From IMG/VR virus record IMGVR_UViG_3300032954_000005, positions 13,249-77,248 of that record: a DNA stretch of 64,000 nt, one strand, 5' to 3'. Below are positions 30,647 through 37,042 of this stretch, one piece after another (position 1 is the first letter of the stretch; every line of letters starts with the position of its first letter). Both the position numbers and the translations under genes were made by a program. The stretch comes from a virus. The notes under the pieces were generated by a model. It had not been told where the DNA came from. It made no database searches and saw only the letters and a program-made list of their open reading frames with translations.

Positions 30647-31094
30647 AAACGCGTACTACCTCGCGATGCTCGCGCTCGTCGCGACGCGCGGCACGTGCCC
30701 GCGGCGGCGGGTGGCGGCGATCCTCACCGACGCGGAGGGGCGCGTCCTCGCAACCGGGTACAACGGGCCCCCGCCCGGATACCCGCACTGTATCGACGAC
30801 CCGTGCCCGGGGGCAAGGGACGCGGCGGGGGACACGTCGCGCTGCGTCGCCATCCACGCCGAGCAGAACGCGATCGTCCAGGCGGGGCTGGGCGGAAACC
30901 TGGCGCGGGCGCGGCACCTGTACACGTCGGCGTCGCCGTGCTTCTCGTGCTGTAAGCTGCTGTGCGCGCTTCCCGCGCTGTGGGAGATCTACGCGCTCGA
31001 CCTGTACCCCGACGCCGCGGGCCTCGACCTGCTGCGGCGCAGGAGAATTAAGCTTTTCGTTAAGACCAACGACGGCCTAAAGGAGATCTTATGA
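30630..31094 (+). CDS. dCMP deaminase family protein
   Basis: TC.RR.V, GYNG, HAEQNA and SPCFSC. Confidence 0.92.
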   Translation: MPRESKNAYYLAMLALVATRGTCPRRRVAAILTDAEGRVLATGYNGPPPGYPHCIDDPCPGARDAAGDTSRCVAIHAEQNAIVQAGLGGNLARARHLYTSASPCFSCCKLLCALPALWEIYALDLYPDAAGLDLLRRRRIKLFVKTNDGLKEIL

Positions 31095-31678
31095 ACGACG
31101 ACTACACCGCGTGGGAGCTGGTACGCGCGTTCCACCTGCGGTACGGCCACGCTGCGCCCGACGCGCTGACCGCTCTTTCGCCCGAGGTGCGGCTTCTTCG
31201 GCAGCGCCTAATTTTGGAAGAGCTCGGCGAGCTCGCGGTCGCCGTTCACCAGCGCGACCTCATCAAGATCGCCGACGCGGGGTGTGACCTCGCGTACGTC
31301 CTTCACGGGACGGCGGTCGCCGCGGGCAAGCTCTCGCGCTCGATGTGGACGTATGACCCGGTAAAGAGCGCGATCGAGCGGCCGTCGCTCACGCGGGTCG
31401 CGCTGAGCGCCGCGACGTGCTGCGCGAAGCTCGACACCGACGGCGTCGCGTACTACGTGGAGGCGGCCGTCCTCGACGTGGGGCTGCTGCTGCGGAGTCT
31501 TCGGATTCCGTTCGAGGCGTGTTTTCGCGAAGTGCACGCGTCGAACATGACGAAGGCCGTTCCCAGCGCGACGAAGCCCGGTGAGAAGTACGGCGACGGC
31601 GAGAAGACTGGGAAGGGCGCGACGTTCGTCCCGCCTGACCTGCGCGCGATTCTTCGCGACGCGGGACTTACAGTTTAG
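31091..31678 (+). CDS. MazG-like (PRA-PH type) NTP pyrophosphohydrolase
   Basis: LILEELGEL...DAGCDLAYV..G...FREVHASNMTK...PPDL. Confidence 0.85.
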   Translation: MNDDYTAWELVRAFHLRYGHAAPDALTALSPEVRLLRQRLILEELGELAVAVHQRDLIKIADAGCDLAYVLHGTAVAAGKLSRSMWTYDPVKSAIERPSLTRVALSAATCCAKLDTDGVAYYVEAAVLDVGLLLRSLRIPFEACFREVHASNMTKAVPSATKPGEKYGDGEKTGKGATFVPPDLRAILRDAGLTV

Positions 31679-31790
31679 AAACTCCTTAACCAACATCGGC
31701 GGGCATCGAGCGACGCCCGCCGATATTGCCCCGCCTGATTCGCAGCCCGTAACCCGTTGAAAATAAAGAAAATAAATCTTTAATTATTTT

Positions 31791-31819
31791 GTGTACAACG
31801 CTGAGAAAGGGTTTAGAAT
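31791..31819 (+). promoter_or_regulatory. Putative early promoter with UP element
   Basis: A/T tract about 31757-31790, then TGTACA-16 nt-TAGAAT. Confidence 0.6.
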
Positions 31820-32189
31820 TATCTTTCCTTACGGAATGGTTGTTCGGTTCGTTGAAAACAAAGGCAGGCGCGTAGGGCCCGAGAGAATCGGAGCCGCTCA
31901 GGGTGGTGCCTATCGTCGCGACGACGAGGGATGCAAGCGGGGCAGGCGCGGCCGGAATACGAAGCTGAAAAGCAAGACGCGGAGAATACGACGACGCGGG
32001 CGGCGCGAAAAACGGATGCTGTGAGCGAACGCGGGAGGCGAGGTCACGAAGGTCGACCTCAACGGCGGGAGCGGGCAATATGGTTCGGTCGCGGGGTGGG
32101 CGTACGGGTTGCGGACGTTGGCTGCTTTCAGTCGCACGAACTTTTCAAAACGTGTGAAGCCCCGCACCGGCATCGGGCGGGCAAATTTT

Positions 32190-32294
32190 GCAGAGGACGA
32201 CCGCGGCGCAGACCGCGGCGGAATGCGCGGCCCAGGTTCCAAGCCCTGGGCGACATTTAACCCCAAGCGACGCGGCGCACGTACCGCGAAGGAG
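32190..32294 (+). ncRNA. Structured intergenic element copy 1 (modules A, B, C and RBS)
   Basis: GCAGAGGAC-stem-GGAATGCG; stem-GGTTCCAAGCCC-stem; GCGGCGCACGTACCGC; GAAGGAG. Confidence 0.7.
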
Positions 32295-32300
32295 AACAGT

Positions 32301-32567
32301 ATGATGAATCAATACAAGTGCAGCAACTGTCACAGCTCCAACCTTCACCAAAGCAAGAGCAGCGAGCACGACGTTGTCTGTAACGACTGCCACATGACGA
32401 CGGACAAGGTCACTGCCCTGAAGGCGCCCTGGGCGTACTGCGGTTTCGACGAGGTTCACGTGCCGCAGCACGACGGGGCAGAGCGCATCATCACCCGAAA
32501 GCAGGCGAAGGCGGAGGGAATCAAGCTCGCGCCTTACAAGTATTTTTACACAGCTTTGAAGTTCTAA
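32301..32567 (+). CDS. 88-aa zinc-ribbon protein
   Basis: CSNC...CNDC; AAGGAG RBS. Confidence 0.65.
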   Translation: MMNQYKCSNCHSSNLHQSKSSEHDVVCNDCHMTTDKVTALKAPWAYCGFDEVHVPQHDGAERIITRKQAKAEGIKLAPYKYFYTALKF

Positions 32568-32568
32568 G

Positions 32569-32676
32569 CGCAGAGGACGACGATCGCCACGCGATCGTCG
32601 TAATGCGGCGCGCCGGTTCCAAGCCCGGCGGGTTCGTATAATAACGATGCGACGCGGCGCACGTACCGCAGAGGAG
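32569..32676 (+). ncRNA. Structured intergenic element copy 2
   Basis: CGCAGAGGA CGACGATCGC cac GCGATCGTCG TAATGCG; CGCCGG TTCCAAGC CCGGCG; module C present. Confidence 0.75.
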
Positions 32677-32682
32677 AGCAAG

Positions 32683-34200
32683 ATGAACACAACGCAGTTC
32701 AGTCCGCTTCAGCAGCGCATCTTCAAGTTCGTCGCGGAGGAAACCGGGAACGCATCGATCGAGGCGGTCGCCGGGTCAGGCAAGACGACCACGATCGTGG
32801 CCGCCGCGTCGTACCTTCCGCCAACGTCGCGCAACCTCTTTCTGGCGTTCAACAAGTCGATCGCCGAGGAGCTCGCGACACGCCTTCCCGCGCACGTCAC
32901 GGCGAAGACGTTGAACAGCCTTGGGCACGGCGCGTGGGCCGCAAAGCTCCGCCCAGCCCGCCTAAAGCTCGACGCCAACAAGACGCGCGCCATCCTCGAT
33001 AAGCGCGTCGTCGAGGCAGACAGAAAGCTGTACGGCTCCCTGGTGACGCGCCTCGTTGCGCTGGCGAAGTCCGCGGGCCTCGCACCCGCGGGTGCCCCAA
33101 ACGCATATCCCCTGGTGGACGACACCCTCGATGCGTGGCTCGACATGATCGAGTACCACGACCTGGAGGTGCCCGAGGAGGGAAACGTCAACCGCGCGAT
33201 CGACCTGGCGCGCAAGGTGCTCAGCGAGTCGATTCGGCAGGCGTTTCTTGGCTGCATCGACTTTGACGATCAGATCTACATGACGGTGGTCTACCGCGCT
33301 CCGATGAGCAGGTTTGACTTCGTGTTTGTCGATGAGGCGCAGGACCTTAACTGCATCCAGCACCAGCTGATTGCGATGGCAATCAAGTCGGGCGGTCGGC
33401 TCATCGCGGTGGGGGACCCCCGCCAGGCAATCTACGGCTTTCGTGGGGCGGATGCGTCGAGCATGGAAAACCTGCAGCGGCGCTTTCGCACAGTAACGCT
33501 TCCGCTGTCGATCAGCTACCGCTGCCCACAGGCCGTGGTCCGCGAGGCGCAGAAGCTGGTTTCGCACATTCAGTCAAGCGAGACGGCGCCCGTCGGGGTT
33601 GTTGAAACGCTTGACGCGTACAACGCCGATACGTTTAACGACAGCGACGCAATCGTGTGCCGCAACGCGCGACCCCTGGTCGCGCTCGCCTTCCAGCTGA
33701 TTCGCGCCGGGCGTGGCTGCCGCGTCCTTGGGCGGGACATTGGCCAGGGCCTTCAGGCGCTCATAAAGAAGATGAACGCGGCCGACGTTGACGCGCTCGA
33801 GACCAAGCTTGACGCCTACCTCGACCGTGAAACGCGCCGCCTGCTCGCGAAGAACCAGGACGCGAAGGTCGCGGCGCTCGAGGACAAGGTCGACACCATC
33901 CGCCTGTTTATCGACCAGCTGGGCGAGGACGAGCGGACGATCGACGCGCTGTTTGGGAAGATCGACGCACTGTTCACCGACAACGGCCACGGAAAGCTTA
34001 CGCTGTGCACCGTCCACAAGGCGAAGGGCCTCGAGTGGGAGCGCGTGTTCATCCTCGACGCGCACCTCATGCCGTCGAAGTACGCGCGACAGGATTGGCA
34101 GCTGGCGCAGGAGACGAACATCCACTACGTGGCGATCACTCGCGCGAAGCGCGAGCTGCGCTACATCGACAGCGAAGGATTCAAAGCTAAGAAGCAGTAA
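32683..34200 (+). CDS. UvrD/Rep-like SF1 helicase
   Basis: AVAGSGKTTT, VDEAQD, VGDPRQAIYGFRGA, SYRCP, TVHKAKGLE and YVAITRA. Confidence 0.95.
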   Translation: MNTTQFSPLQQRIFKFVAEETGNASIEAVAGSGKTTTIVAAASYLPPTSRNLFLAFNKSIAEELATRLPAHVTAKTLNSLGHGAWAAKLRPARLKLDANKTRAILDKRVVEADRKLYGSLVTRLVALAKSAGLAPAGAPNAYPLVDDTLDAWLDMIEYHDLEVPEEGNVNRAIDLARKVLSESIRQAFLGCIDFDDQIYMTVVYRAPMSRFDFVFVDEAQDLNCIQHQLIAMAIKSGGRLIAVGDPRQAIYGFRGADASSMENLQRRFRTVTLPLSISYRCPQAVVREAQKLVSHIQSSETAPVGVVETLDAYNADTFNDSDAIVCRNARPLVALAFQLIRAGRGCRVLGRDIGQGLQALIKKMNAADVDALETKLDAYLDRETRRLLAKNQDAKVAALEDKVDTIRLFIDQLGEDERTIDALFGKIDALFTDNGHGKLTLCTVHKAKGLEWERVFILDAHLMPSKYARQDWQLAQETNIHYVAITRAKRELRYIDSEGFKAKKQ

Positions 34201-34205
34201 AGGGA

Positions 34206-34307
34206 CGCAGAGGACGCCGGCGATCGCCGGCGTAATGCGGCAGGCTGGGTTCCAAGCCCCCGGCGCGCAGAACACCAAGCGAGGCGGCGCGTGTACCGCC
34301 GAAGGAG
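34206..34307 (+). ncRNA. Structured intergenic element copy 3
   Basis: CGCAGAGGA CGCCGGCG at CGCCGGCG TAATGCG; GGTTCCAAGCCC hairpin; GGCGGCGCGTGTACCGCC; GAAGGAG. Confidence 0.75.
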
Positions 34308-34313
34308 AATGAA

Positions 34314-34493
34314 GTGACTAGCAAGCAAAAGAGCCAAAACTTCAAGCTGCGTACAGCCTTGAAGCTGATCAAGCTGCACATCACGGAGGAGGCGAACGAT
34401 CAAAACCGCCACCTTCACAACGCCGTTCAGCTCATCGTAGACGTGGCGAGGGAGCATAACCTTTTAATTGAGGAGGTGCGCCGTGCAGGTTGA
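34314..34493 (+). CDS. 59-aa hypothetical protein
   Basis: Hand translation MTSKQKSQNFKLRTALKL... from GTG after the element RBS. Confidence 0.55.
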   Translation: MTSKQKSQNFKLRTALKLIKLHITEEANDQNRHLHNAVQLIVDVAREHNLLIEEVRRAG

Positions 34494-34974
34494 GATCGGG
34501 CAGGGCGGCAGGCTTACCACCGCCGCGGACGCGCTGAACTTCATCCTGGCCGGGAACGCCGTGTTCACGCTGGTGTCCCGGGCGACGAGCGCGCGGTACA
34601 CCTACAAGGTGTCGCGCGCGGTCGACCGCGTGGGCAGGCCCAGCGCGACGCTGTTCAAGGAAGACACCGCCGGCCCGGTCTACTTCGTTTCGCTCCTGGC
34701 CGGGCCGGACAACACGGCGGACTACGTCTACCTTGGAATCATCCGGGACGGCGCGTTCCGTCTGACGCAGAAGAGCAAGCTGACAACCGCGTCGAAGCCC
34801 GTCCAGGCGTTCACGTGGACGCTCACGCGTCTGCTCCTCAGCCACCTTCCCCTGAACGTCGAGGTGTGGCACACGGGCAGGTGCGGGCGCTGCGCGCGGC
34901 TCCTCACCGTACCCGAAAGCGTGGCGCGCGGCATCGGCCCAGAGTGCGCGGCGCGAATGGATGGCGCCGCGTGA
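34483..34974 (+). CDS. DUF6011-like protein
   Basis: GRCGRCARLLTVPESVARGIGPEC; GAGGAGG RBS. Confidence 0.8.
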   Translation: MQVEIGQGGRLTTAADALNFILAGNAVFTLVSRATSARYTYKVSRAVDRVGRPSATLFKEDTAGPVYFVSLLAGPDNTADYVYLGIIRDGAFRLTQKSKLTTASKPVQAFTWTLTRLLLSHLPLNVEVWHTGRCGRCARLLTVPESVARGIGPECAARMDGAA

Positions 34975-35282
34975 GCGGGCTGTATTTGCTCCACTTCGAG
35001 CCGCGGTATAGGCACGCCGGGCACTACCTTGGTTACGCAAAAAACATCTCCCAACGTGTTGCAGAGCATCGTGCGGGAAGAGCGCGAACGCCGCTGACTA
35101 CGGCCGCGGCGCGCGCCGGGTGCTGGATGTTCCTGGTGCGCACGTGGGAGGGCGGGACACGCGACGACGAGCGCAGGCTCAAGGGCACGTCGCGCCCAAC
35201 TACGGGAAGAACGGGCAGCCTCGCACGCCTCTGCCCGGCGTGCGCGGCGCTCAAACAGAAAGGAGAACGAAGTGGAAGTTGA
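34971..35282 (+). CDS. GIY-YIG-like small nuclease
   Basis: GLYLLHF...HYLGYA.NI..R...H..G...E. Confidence 0.7.
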   Translation: MSGLYLLHFEPRYRHAGHYLGYAKNISQRVAEHRAGRARTPLTTAAARAGCWMFLVRTWEGGTRDDERRLKGTSRPTTGRTGSLARLCPACAALKQKGERSGS

Positions 35283-35695
35283 GCAGCTGATCGAATTTTT
35301 ATCGACCGTAACAGACAAGGAGGTGCGCATGGCGCAGCAGACGTTGTGCAGGGGGCCTGCGGGTATTCACCGCATCACGCGGGAGGGCGTCGCGCCCGGC
35401 TACCGCTGGCGCTGCGTGGACTGCAACGGGCAGTTCAAGATCGCGCCATCAGCCTACAACCTAGACCTGGCGCGCGAGCGTCAGCTTAACCAAACAACGA
35501 AAGCGAGGTAGCATGAACGTCTCAATCAAGAACGGTGTTCTCACGATCACCATCCCCGTCAACAAGGACCCGCTCCCGGAGTCGAAGTCGAAGAAATCGC
35601 TCGTCGTCGCCTCCACCAACGGAAACGTCGTGACCAAGGAGCTTGTCAACGGCAAGCCCCTGGTCATCGGCCTCAACGCCTACGTGAAGGTGTAA
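35272..35695 (+). other. Two small hypothetical genes (35272-35511, 35513-35695)
   Basis: RBS-preceded ORFs; the second contains SKSKKSLVVAST.GN. Confidence 0.6.
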
Positions 35696-35698
35696 CTT

Positions 35699-35742
35699 CG
35701 CAGAGGACGGCGCGCGCAGTACGGCGCGCCGTAATGCGGCGG
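35699..35742 (+). repeat. Element copy 4 (module A only), identical to 35939-35982
   Basis: 44-bp exact direct repeat CGCAGAGGACGGCGCGCGCAGTACGGCGCGCCGTAATGCGGCGG. Confidence 0.9.
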
Positions 35743-35776
35743 AAAATAAGGCGAAGCTTAAGCTAAAGGAGGCAGT

Positions 35777-35938
35777 GTGATTACAGAGCTGAAAGCCGTG
35801 GAAACTGCTATGCGCAGCTTTATCAGCAATTGGAGCCAAGGGCTAAAAGATGATGGGCTTTTCGACAAAGCTCGTGCGATCGCTGACAGCCTTTCAAATC
35901 TAGCTGCTGCGATTGAATCCAGCGAGGACAACGTATAA
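35777..35938 (+). CDS. 53-aa lower-GC cassette gene
   Basis: AAGGAGG RBS; MITELKAVETAMRSFISNWSQG...; stop abuts copy 5. Confidence 0.6.
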   Translation: MITELKAVETAMRSFISNWSQGLKDDGLFDKARAIADSLSNLAAAIESSEDNV

Positions 35939-36024
35939 CGCAGAGGACGGCGCGCGCAGTACGGCGCGCCGTAATGCGGCGGTCGCGGTTCCAAGCCCGC
36001 GCACGCAGAGCCTAGAAAAGGAGG
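35939..36024 (+). ncRNA. Structured intergenic element copy 5 (modules A and B)
   Basis: Module A plus CGCGG TTCCAAGC CCGCG; AAGGAGG RBS. Confidence 0.75.
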
Positions 36025-36031
36025 TAGTACA

Positions 36032-37042
36032 ATGTACCAGCGAATCATAAGGCAGACCCTGGGCTGTAACGCGCTGATGGCGGCGCTCGTCGAGGGCGTC
36101 ATCCGCCAGGAGGCCCCCAACCACAACCTGGACGCGCTGTCGCGCGTCGAACTCGAGGACGCGATCGTGACGGCGTACCGCGTCGTCGAGTACGGCTACA
36201 ACGTCGTCATCGGGGAGGCGTAACGTGGCGACGAACAAGGTGCACCAGAAGGACGTGCGCGTCGGCGCGGTCTACGCCGTGAAGGTCAGCGGCGCGATCG
36301 CGCCCGTGCGCATCGACGCACGGGACGAGTACTTCATTCGCGGTAAAAAGCTCGTGCGCTGGAATGGTACGAGCCTACGCACGAACCTGAAGGTCTACGT
36401 GCGCAGCGCCGCGAAGCTGCGCTACGAGCTTATTAGATGCGAGGGCGGGTGCGGGCGCTGGATTGAAAAGCTCACCACGCCCTCACGGTGCAGGGCCTGC
36501 AAGGGCCGCGCGCTCATCAACGAGGAAAATAATGCGGCGCCCTCGTAGAAAGCGCCGCCACCTGACCCTTGAGGGAGTAGTCGCGCGCGCCCTGCGCGAC
36601 TACCTCCTGGGCGTCCGCCGCGGCGACGCGTCGCGGACGCCGCGCGCCCGCGCGCGAACCCTCGAGCGGCGCGGCCCGCGCTACGGCTACCGCCGCCGCG
36701 TCAACAACCCCCTGAGCTGGTTTTGAAAAAGGAGAACGCATGAACCTGTCGGCGCTACTACGCAACGCGGCGCAGAAGCTGTTTTACCGCACAAGGCACG
36801 AGGCCCAGTTCAGCGACCAGCAGCGCGCCGCGCAGGCCGTTGCCCAGGAGAAGGCGGCGGAGGCTGAGCAACACGAAACGTTTAAGGACGCGCGCCCACT
36901 CCACCACGGCAACAAGCGGACGCGAGGAGGCGGCACGGCGCGCTGCCGCTGCGCATCGAAGGCGCTCATTCCCGTGTGGTGCCCGCGGCACCGGGCCTAC
37001 GTGCTGAACGGCGCCGCCGACCGCGAGCTGACTCACAAATAA
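36032..37042 (+). other. Small hypothetical early genes
   Basis: ORFs 36032-36223, 36225-36548 and 36740-37042 with RBSs. Confidence 0.55.

Follow-up and report, generated by a model that had tools for sequence, protein, structure and literature searches.

Type-P5 twister ribozymes at the gene borders of a replication and nucleotide-metabolism block in an uncultured phage

Identification of the Repeated Elements as Type-P5 Twister Ribozymes

The IMG/VR virus record IMGVR_UViG_3300032954_000005 (77,248 bp, rated complete) represents a phage in which bases 13249–77248, a stretch of 64,000 nucleotides that is hereafter called the window and numbered from its own first base, contain five copies of a repeated element at the borders of early genes. 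A preliminary description of the window divided this element into three modules (A, B, and C) and regarded it as unrecognised and as belonging to no known Rfam family. Here we show that modules A and B together are a type-P5 twister self-cleaving ribozyme (Rfam family RF02684, Twister-P5), and that the five elements are four complete copies and one truncated copy of this RNA, which is a known RNA and not a new kind. The ribozymes lie in the plus-strand message of a block of replication and nucleotide-metabolism genes, and their main role is very probably the processing of this polycistronic mRNA.

The whole window was scanned against Rfam at gathering thresholds, and three matches were obtained, every one of them to RF02684 (E = 1e-9 to 6.5e-8; gathering score 37.6 bits). 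They were located at 35939–36000 (58.8 bits), 32569–32628 (55.2 bits), and 34206–34261 (52.0 bits), and correspond to copies 5, 2, and 3, respectively. A second, permissive scan of 31500–37000 added RF02684 matches at 32189–32248 (copy 1, 35.2 bits) and 35699–35759 (copy 4, 34.3 bits), both extending over the full length of the model and both under the gathering score. Beyond these five sites, no further RF02684 copy was found in the 77-kb genome. Since a strong match to a described Rfam motif, the very result named in the preliminary description as decisive against novelty, was obtained, the claim of novelty falls. The five locations given there hold, the only shift being that copy 1 starts at 32189 according to the covariance model instead of at 32190. 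Searches for exact motifs located GCAGAGGA at all five sites and at two unrelated ones, while GGTTCCAAGCCC occurred exactly four times in the 64 kb (32235, 32615, 34248, and 35987); shuffled sequences contained it 0.24 times on average and none of 100 shuffles reached four.

Anatomy of the Five Copies

In the published twister anatomy, stems P1, P2, and P4 are essential, pseudoknot T1 joins L1 and L4, and pseudoknot T2 joins the GC of L2 and L4; the A at position +1 is conserved, and the nucleotide at position −1 is non-conserved and almost contact-free in the active site (PMC5408937). Reading the Rfam alignments against this architecture, module A was found to run from the P2 strand CGCA through GAGGA, the L1 strand that opens with the active-site guanine, and a P1 hairpin closed by its loop to the site of cleavage, U^AA, and the second P2 strand, UGCG. 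The L2 contribution to T2 comes from the GC immediately 3′ of P2. P4 and its loop UUCCAAGC form module B; within the loop, UCC pairs with the GGA of GAGGA to form T1 and GC pairs with the GC of L2 to form T2. This module, which had been likened to a tRNA T-loop, is the P4/L4 of a twister, which makes both pseudoknots. The GGA/UCC pairing of T1 and the GC/GC pairing of T2 were found in all four complete copies, and all five copies carry N^AAUGC and CGCA-G-AGGA, with U at −1 in four of them and G in copy 1. As in permutation type P5, P1 is closed in all copies, the element opens with a P2 strand, and the complete copies (1, 2, 3, and 5, each with P1, P2, and P4) close with P4, which is missing from copy 4. 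The inner stems reported for module A fold as claimed, the P1 hairpins reaching ΔG values of −12.5 to −17.6 kcal/mol; the stems reported for module B are right for copies 1, 2, and 5, whereas that of copy 3 is weaker and copy 4 lacks the module.

The elements of the window share with Twister-P5 (clan CL00120) the loop-closed P1, a 4-bp P2, a P4 with an 8-nt L4, T1 and T2, the N^AA site, the active-site G after P2, the lack of P3, and the match over the full length of the model. They differ from it in having an A-U pair in T1 (GAGGA/UUCC) where the Rfam consensus has G-C, in the G at −1 and the 3-bp P2 of copy 1, and in that copy 4 is a half-ribozyme. Judged by this anatomy, the complete copies should be cut between N(−1) and A(+1).

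Copy 1 (32189–32251, plus strand, as are all the features described below) belongs to the leader of the gene with which the punctuated block opens and has a bulged P1 (32198–32220), G at −1 (32221), the 3-bp P2, and a 7-bp P4 (32230–32251), with the predicted scissile bond at 32221/32222. Its score with R1, a covariance model of our own (see below), is 35.6 bits. The orthologue of this copy in the closest relative of the phage (locus L064, position 148) has the same bulged P1 and U at −1, and scores 40.7 bits, above the threshold. Copy 2 (32569–32630; P1 of 10 bp, ΔG −15.7 kcal/mol; predicted cut at 32601/32602) sits between the gene of an 88-aa protein with zinc-ribbon similarity (stop codon 32565–32567) and that of a UvrD-like helicase. 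Copy 3 (34206–34263; predicted cut at 34233/34234) follows the helicase stop codon (34198–34200), and its P4 has 3 bp, one mismatch, and then further pairs; its 3′ half and flank are orthologous to the copy at L064:6019 of the relative. Copy 5 (35939–36001; P1 of 8 bp, ΔG −17.6 kcal/mol; predicted cut at 35972/35973) is the highest scoring of the five and begins immediately past the TAA of an open reading frame (ORF) of 53 aa.

Copy 4 (35699–35742) contains only a P2 strand, GAGGA, P1, UAAUGCG, and GC. Its 44 nt repeat the beginning of copy 5 without a single difference (35699–35742 is identical to 35939–35982) and stop just past the T2 strand. Its RF02684 alignment includes a spurious P4, and no GGTTCCAAGCCC was present 3′ of it. 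Since P4/L4 is lacking, neither pseudoknot can form in cis, and copy 4, where the position equivalent to the scissile bond is 35732/35733, is therefore probably inactive. The two identical ribozyme halves enclose a low-GC insert of 196 nt (35743–35938; GC content 0.47 vs. 0.62 for the window) with a Shine-Dalgarno (SD) sequence and the 53-aa ORF (35777–35938), for which no Pfam or PHROG family and no relative in IMG/VR were found.

Covariation of Stems and Pseudoknots

The covariance model R1 was built on six 55-nt copies from three other phages and searched against the window plus 62 loci, which gave 85 matches, 62 of them distinct. Covariation was counted in these 62 phage copies over the 20 pairs of P2, P1, P4, T1, and T2, the last two entered as pseudoknots. 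In 98.5% of the cells the pairing was standard, a value that none of 500 column shuffles matched (74.1% paired in this control) and that fell to 20–40% when the partners were slid by 1–3 columns. Double changes were found at 17 of the 20 pairs. All seven pairs of P1, three of the four of P2, and three of the four of P4 covaried, with 98–99.6% of the cells paired in these stems. T1 was unpaired in the search model, and yet its three pairs all covaried across phages: the window combination GAGGA/UUCC is replaced elsewhere by GAGGG/UCCC, GAUGG/UCCA, GAGUG/UCAC, or GAAAG/UCUU. T2 was paired in 95% of the cells and showed one covarying pair. Since the stems and both pseudoknots covary in this larger alignment, the folded strand is under selection, as the preliminary description had proposed, and the selected fold is that of a twister.

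Position of the Ribozymes Relative to the Genes

Copies 2 to 5 begin 1, 5, 3, and 0 nt after the stop codon of the preceding gene, and copy 1 is preceded by a conserved non-coding stretch and not by a gene. An SD sequence and a start codon are found downstream of all five copies, in agreement with the earlier observation that four copies begin 0–5 nt after a stop codon and that all of them precede a ribosome-binding site. Since the predicted cut lies 33–34 nt beyond the stop codon, the upstream cistron would retain its stop. In the window, only borders between non-overlapping genes carry a ribozyme, and no copy lies within the run of five overlapping or abutting genes that separates copies 3 and 4 (34314–35695).

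The same arrangement was found in other phages. The closest relative, a 40.5-kb IMG/VR fragment (locus L064) with a helicase 86% identical to that of the window, contains, within 6 kb, eight twister-P5 copies that exceed the threshold. Of these, seven start 0–5 nt past a stop codon, the first one lies behind the conserved non-coding stretch, and all of them end 9–21 nt before an SD sequence. The sequence subtype of the window, with the A-U pair in T1, was found in at least 58 IMG/VR stretches, the window included; whole-record searches of 47 of these records revealed five with at least four matches at E ≤ 0.001, and the stretches examined from these five array records, which belong to unrelated phages, hold 3–8 copies within 2.2–5.1 kb. 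Seven phage records together contain 36 copies preceded by an ORF, and in 31 of these the ribozyme begins at a distance of −1 to +5 nt from the stop codon of that ORF; all copies are on the coding strand, and most of them end within about 25 nt of an SD sequence. As a control, 95 loci (770 kb) near distant helicase homologues were searched, and no twister was present except in one near-copy of the relative; the ribozymes track particular phage lineages and regions and not the helicase gene. A metagenome scan for further relatives returned only the same relative, its 3.5-kb near-copy, and helicases at most 50% identical without twisters.

Proposed Role in the Processing of One Phage Message

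The analysis shows, for this and for other phages, that the elements belong to the twister family, have its anatomy, covary, and sit at the borders of cistrons. We infer that they cleave in vivo and that they do so to let every unit have a stability and a translation context of its own. Cleavage would leave an upstream product with its stop codon, a 33–34-nt tail, and a GC-rich P1 hairpin ending in a 2′,3′-cyclic phosphate, and a downstream product with a 5′-OH, the P4 hairpin, and a leader of 59–81 nt. If each of the four complete copies cuts, the message would thus be split into three bounded units plus the genes past the last cut: unit 1 with the zinc-ribbon gene (32222–32601), unit 2 with the helicase gene (32602–34233), and unit 3 (34234–35972) with five translationally coupled genes and the inserted ORF. 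Every unit would in this way gain protected ends of its own and a defined leader.

A role of this kind has precedents. Processing of long transcripts was proposed in 2011 for tandem hammerhead ribozymes of phages and prophages, on which in vitro cleavage of native fragments of about 2 kb was demonstrated (PMC3088659), and a later review suggests the processing of long phage transcripts for twisters as well (PMC6765202). The hammerhead arrays of Perreault et al. (2011; PMC3088659) resemble the window in that several ribozymes on the coding strand flank single genes or short blocks of varying identity, as in the haloviruses HF1 and HF2, where one such ribozyme directly precedes an early helicase gene. 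They differ in the ribozyme class and in that the placement in the window is very regular, 0–5 nt from the stop codon; furthermore, cleavage was shown in vitro for the hammerheads, whereas for the window it is predicted. Given an array of five copies within 3.8 kb in the window, one of eight within 6 kb in the relative, and arrays of 3–8 in the five further records, the locus is a clear example of this known arrangement, to which it adds an insert flanked by half-ribozymes and variability of the slots between relatives.

Several points weigh against this assignment of function. The phage is uncultured and known from metagenome assemblies only, so that its cleavage and transcription are predictions from sequence; among the sequencing runs searched, two DNA runs matched it, both of them wetland metagenomes, and no RNA run did. 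The promoter of the block was not located. Copy 1 scores just under the Rfam gathering score, and copy 4 is unable to fold as a twister. The benefit ascribed to cleavage (stability and insulation) is drawn by analogy with engineered systems, and the role of twisters in bacteria and phages has been described as "largely elusive" (PMC6765202). Given this state of the field, the locus and its relative offer a compact natural test case, with four to eight ribozymes per operon, each starting at a stop codon, and with predicted hairpin-capped 3′ ends and 5′-OH ends; the half-ribozyme of copy 4 could serve as a natural internal negative control. The pair of related genomes with differing slot genes would be useful for examining both mRNA processing and the possible role in gene exchange that is considered below.

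Alternative Roles

The preliminary description had listed a new small ribozyme, an RNA for mRNA processing, antitermination, or translation control, and single-stranded DNA recombination sites as possible identities. Of these, a small ribozyme and mRNA processing proved correct in kind; a new class is refuted by the Rfam matches, and antitermination and single-stranded DNA recombination sites found no support. Before the Rfam search, the modular look and the covarying stems were all that spoke for a new RNA class, an antiterminator or terminator, or an attC-like recombination site, and given the full-length RF02684 matches we consider such identities extremely improbable. No U-tract follows P1 or P4, and these hairpins were rejected as terminators, there being no terminator-like site on the plus strand at the copies; an RNA fold is also in keeping with the G-U pairs of P1, which are strand-specific, and with the covariation of the pseudoknots. 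An improbable outcome, although somewhat less so, would be that doubly cut units are circularised to circular mRNAs, either by reversal of the cleavage reaction or with the help of an RtcB-type ligase of the host. Reassembly would be possible because neighbouring ribozymes have their P2, T1, and T2 strands in common, so that the 3′ half of one could join with the 5′ half of its successor: P2 (CGCA/UGCG), T1 (GGA/UCC), and T2 (GC/GC) are identical in copies 2, 3, and 5. The 5′-OH and 2′,3′-cyclic phosphate ends left by twisters suit RtcB as substrates. The study of tandem hammerheads in phages had considered circular or spliced products, looked for them, and found none (PMC3088659). A search that detected RtcB genes in control genomes found none in this phage and none in four further phages rich in twisters, and nothing in the sequence demands circular units.

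A further alternative, compatible with processing, is that the twister copies act mainly as joints for the exchange of gene cassettes, RNA cleavage being either the reason for a ribozyme in each cassette or secondary; we regard this as possible and, as the main role, rather unlikely. Near-identical repeats of about 55 nt at gene borders would provide homology for recombination, so that genes would move as ribozyme-bounded units. The window and the relative share the MazG-like gene, the non-coding stretch, the first twister, the helicase, and three downstream genes, and no gene in a ribozyme-bounded slot is common to both (32301–32567 and 34314–35938 in the window; seven slots in the relative). 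The relative's copy at L064:6019 has two counterparts in the window, copies 3 and 5, with 1.7 kb of genes absent from the relative in between, and the insert of GC content 0.47 with its orphan ORF lies between identical ribozyme halves. Eight of the ten larger slot proteins, taken from five phages, have no known function, and the ribozymes do not accompany helicases of this family in general, as seen in the 95 distant loci with the near-copy of the relative excepted. An analogous role is documented for the promoter/stem-loop (PeSL) cassettes of T4-type phages, in which repeated regulatory motifs border variable orphan genes in hyperplastic regions and are thought to mediate modular shuffling (PMC2839356, PMC4122927); those are, unlike ribozymes, promoter-terminator motifs that act on transcription, and recombination at the twisters is putative. 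Only two related genomes were compared, and breakpoint statistics cannot be drawn from two; the repeats at the borders may be a result of cassette turnover and not its cause. The arrangement of copies 4 and 5 rests on one assembly, the Logan contigs of the two wetland runs being short and of low depth, with none spanning copy 4, the insert, and copy 5. Moreover, the catalytic core and both pseudoknots are conserved, with covariation, across unrelated phages, which recombination homology alone would not need. Processing of the phage message thus stays the preferred role. What the two genomes display looks like gene turnover in ribozyme-bounded units, as a pattern and not as a mechanism. We put forward only tentatively, as less likely than not, that the twisters do two jobs in this lineage, as processing sites in RNA and as joints in DNA for the gain and loss of small genes, with the half-ribozyme, the low-GC ORF, and the complete ribozyme of 35699–36001 as a recent insertion. 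If true, a dual role would help to explain the clustering of self-cleaving ribozymes among variable phage genes.

Module C, a Separate Repeated Motif

Module C was found behind copies 1 to 3, 1–3 nt before the purine-rich SD stretch, and is missing behind copies 4 and 5. Behind copy 1 (32267–32287) it reads GCGAC-GCGG-CGCACGTA-CCGC and lies a few nucleotides 5′ of the SD sequence of the zinc-ribbon gene (ATG at 32301); behind copy 2 (32649–32669) it precedes the SD sequence of the helicase gene (ATG at 32683); and behind copy 3 (34279–34299), where the loop is CGCGTGTA and the basal pair is G-C and not C-G, it precedes the SD sequence of a gene for a 59-aa protein (GTG at 34314). The 16-mer GCGGCGCRYGTACCGC is exact at 32272, 32654, and 34284, is preceded by GCGAS each time, and has no other site in the 77-kb genome. 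It could fold into a 4–5-bp stem with an 8-nt loop, in which the basal pair is the one compensatory change among the three copies. The predicted hairpin was as stable as shuffled sequence (fold z-scores of −0.56 to +0.45), alternative folds were predicted, and a stable hairpin at module C was not supported by these values. The preliminary description had seen in module C a hairpin abutting the SD sequence and a part of the element; the motif does not belong to the element, since the eight twister units of the relative lack it. Elsewhere the 16-mer was present in more than 117 IMG/VR stretches, one apiece and never within 200 nt downstream of a twister, and therefore chance occurrence in GC-rich DNA fits these matches.

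Module C is thus a real, lineage-specific repeated motif of 21 nt, separate from the ribozyme. It may be an insulator hairpin of the RiboJ kind or, equally possibly, a protein-binding translational operator. RiboJ combines the sTRSV ribozyme with a 23-nt hairpin before the ribosome-binding site (PMC6206723), and copies 1 to 3 have the same order of ribozyme, putative hairpin, and SD sequence; the predicted cleavage would likewise strip the upstream context and leave a hairpin leader of near-fixed length (79–81 nt). They differ from RiboJ in being natural and of another ribozyme class, in that the putative stem of module C has 4–5 bp, and in that the motif is missing at copies 4 and 5 and in the relative.

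Genes of the Block and Additional Observations

The upstream flank of the block carries a gene for a MazG-like pyrophosphohydrolase (31091–31678). The first gene behind a ribozyme encodes the 88-aa protein (32301–32567), whose matches to zinc ribbons are weak and sub-threshold, and the second the UvrD-like helicase (32683–34200; PHROG 1967, E = 3e-108). The other flanking genes identified encode a DUF6011 protein, a protein with a weak GIY-YIG match, and small proteins without a known family. The weak GIY-YIG match (E = 0.0015, under the Pfam cutoff) belongs to a small protein that is encoded at 34971–35282 in the third ribozyme-bounded unit, beside the DUF6011 protein.

The stretch upstream of copy 1 (31850–32188, about 340 nt) is approximately 76% identical to that of the relative. 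It is considered non-coding because its indels are not multiples of three and similarly weak translated matches were obtained in all frames. As a structured RNA it gave no Rfam match and a fold z-score of −0.52, based on the two sequences known. It may be a promoter, a leader, or an RNA released by the first ribozyme. A perfect TATAAT was observed at 32637–32642, just past copy 2, within the motif CGTATAAT-AAC, which is also present in two units of the relative (L064:1692 and 2310); an internal promoter at this position is doubtful, because only 14 nt separate it from the TTCCAA in L4.

In the second wetland run, short contigs of low depth matched the window up to ribozyme borders and then diverged (35620–35694, 35971–36003, and 32599–32669), and one otherwise dissimilar contig of 489 nt contained the 3′ half of copy 2, the leader, and module C. 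These contigs suggest mosaic joints only weakly and may reflect an artefact of the repeats.

In other phages, a heptamer resembling CCGCAUU was observed 10–11 nt past P4, complementary to the 5′ end of the 3′ product (AAUGCGG). It was found at L064:1128–1134 and 3971–3977 in the relative, at four sites in locus L147, after 2244–2301 in L025, in L050, and after 673–732 in L149, and one copy covaried (AAUGUGG with CCACAUU). The heptamer is missing from the copies of the window, for which a helix between AAUGCGG and the leader was not convincing. Where present, it could cap the 5′ end created by the cut, or it could rival P2 in the uncut RNA. Finally, an unrelated phage of 88.6 kb (L145; G036:55500–62500) had, within about 5 kb, a weaker match besides eight copies that exceeded the threshold; P2 was mostly GCC/GGC in this array, and the stop codon TAG overlapped the first ribozyme base in three of the copies.

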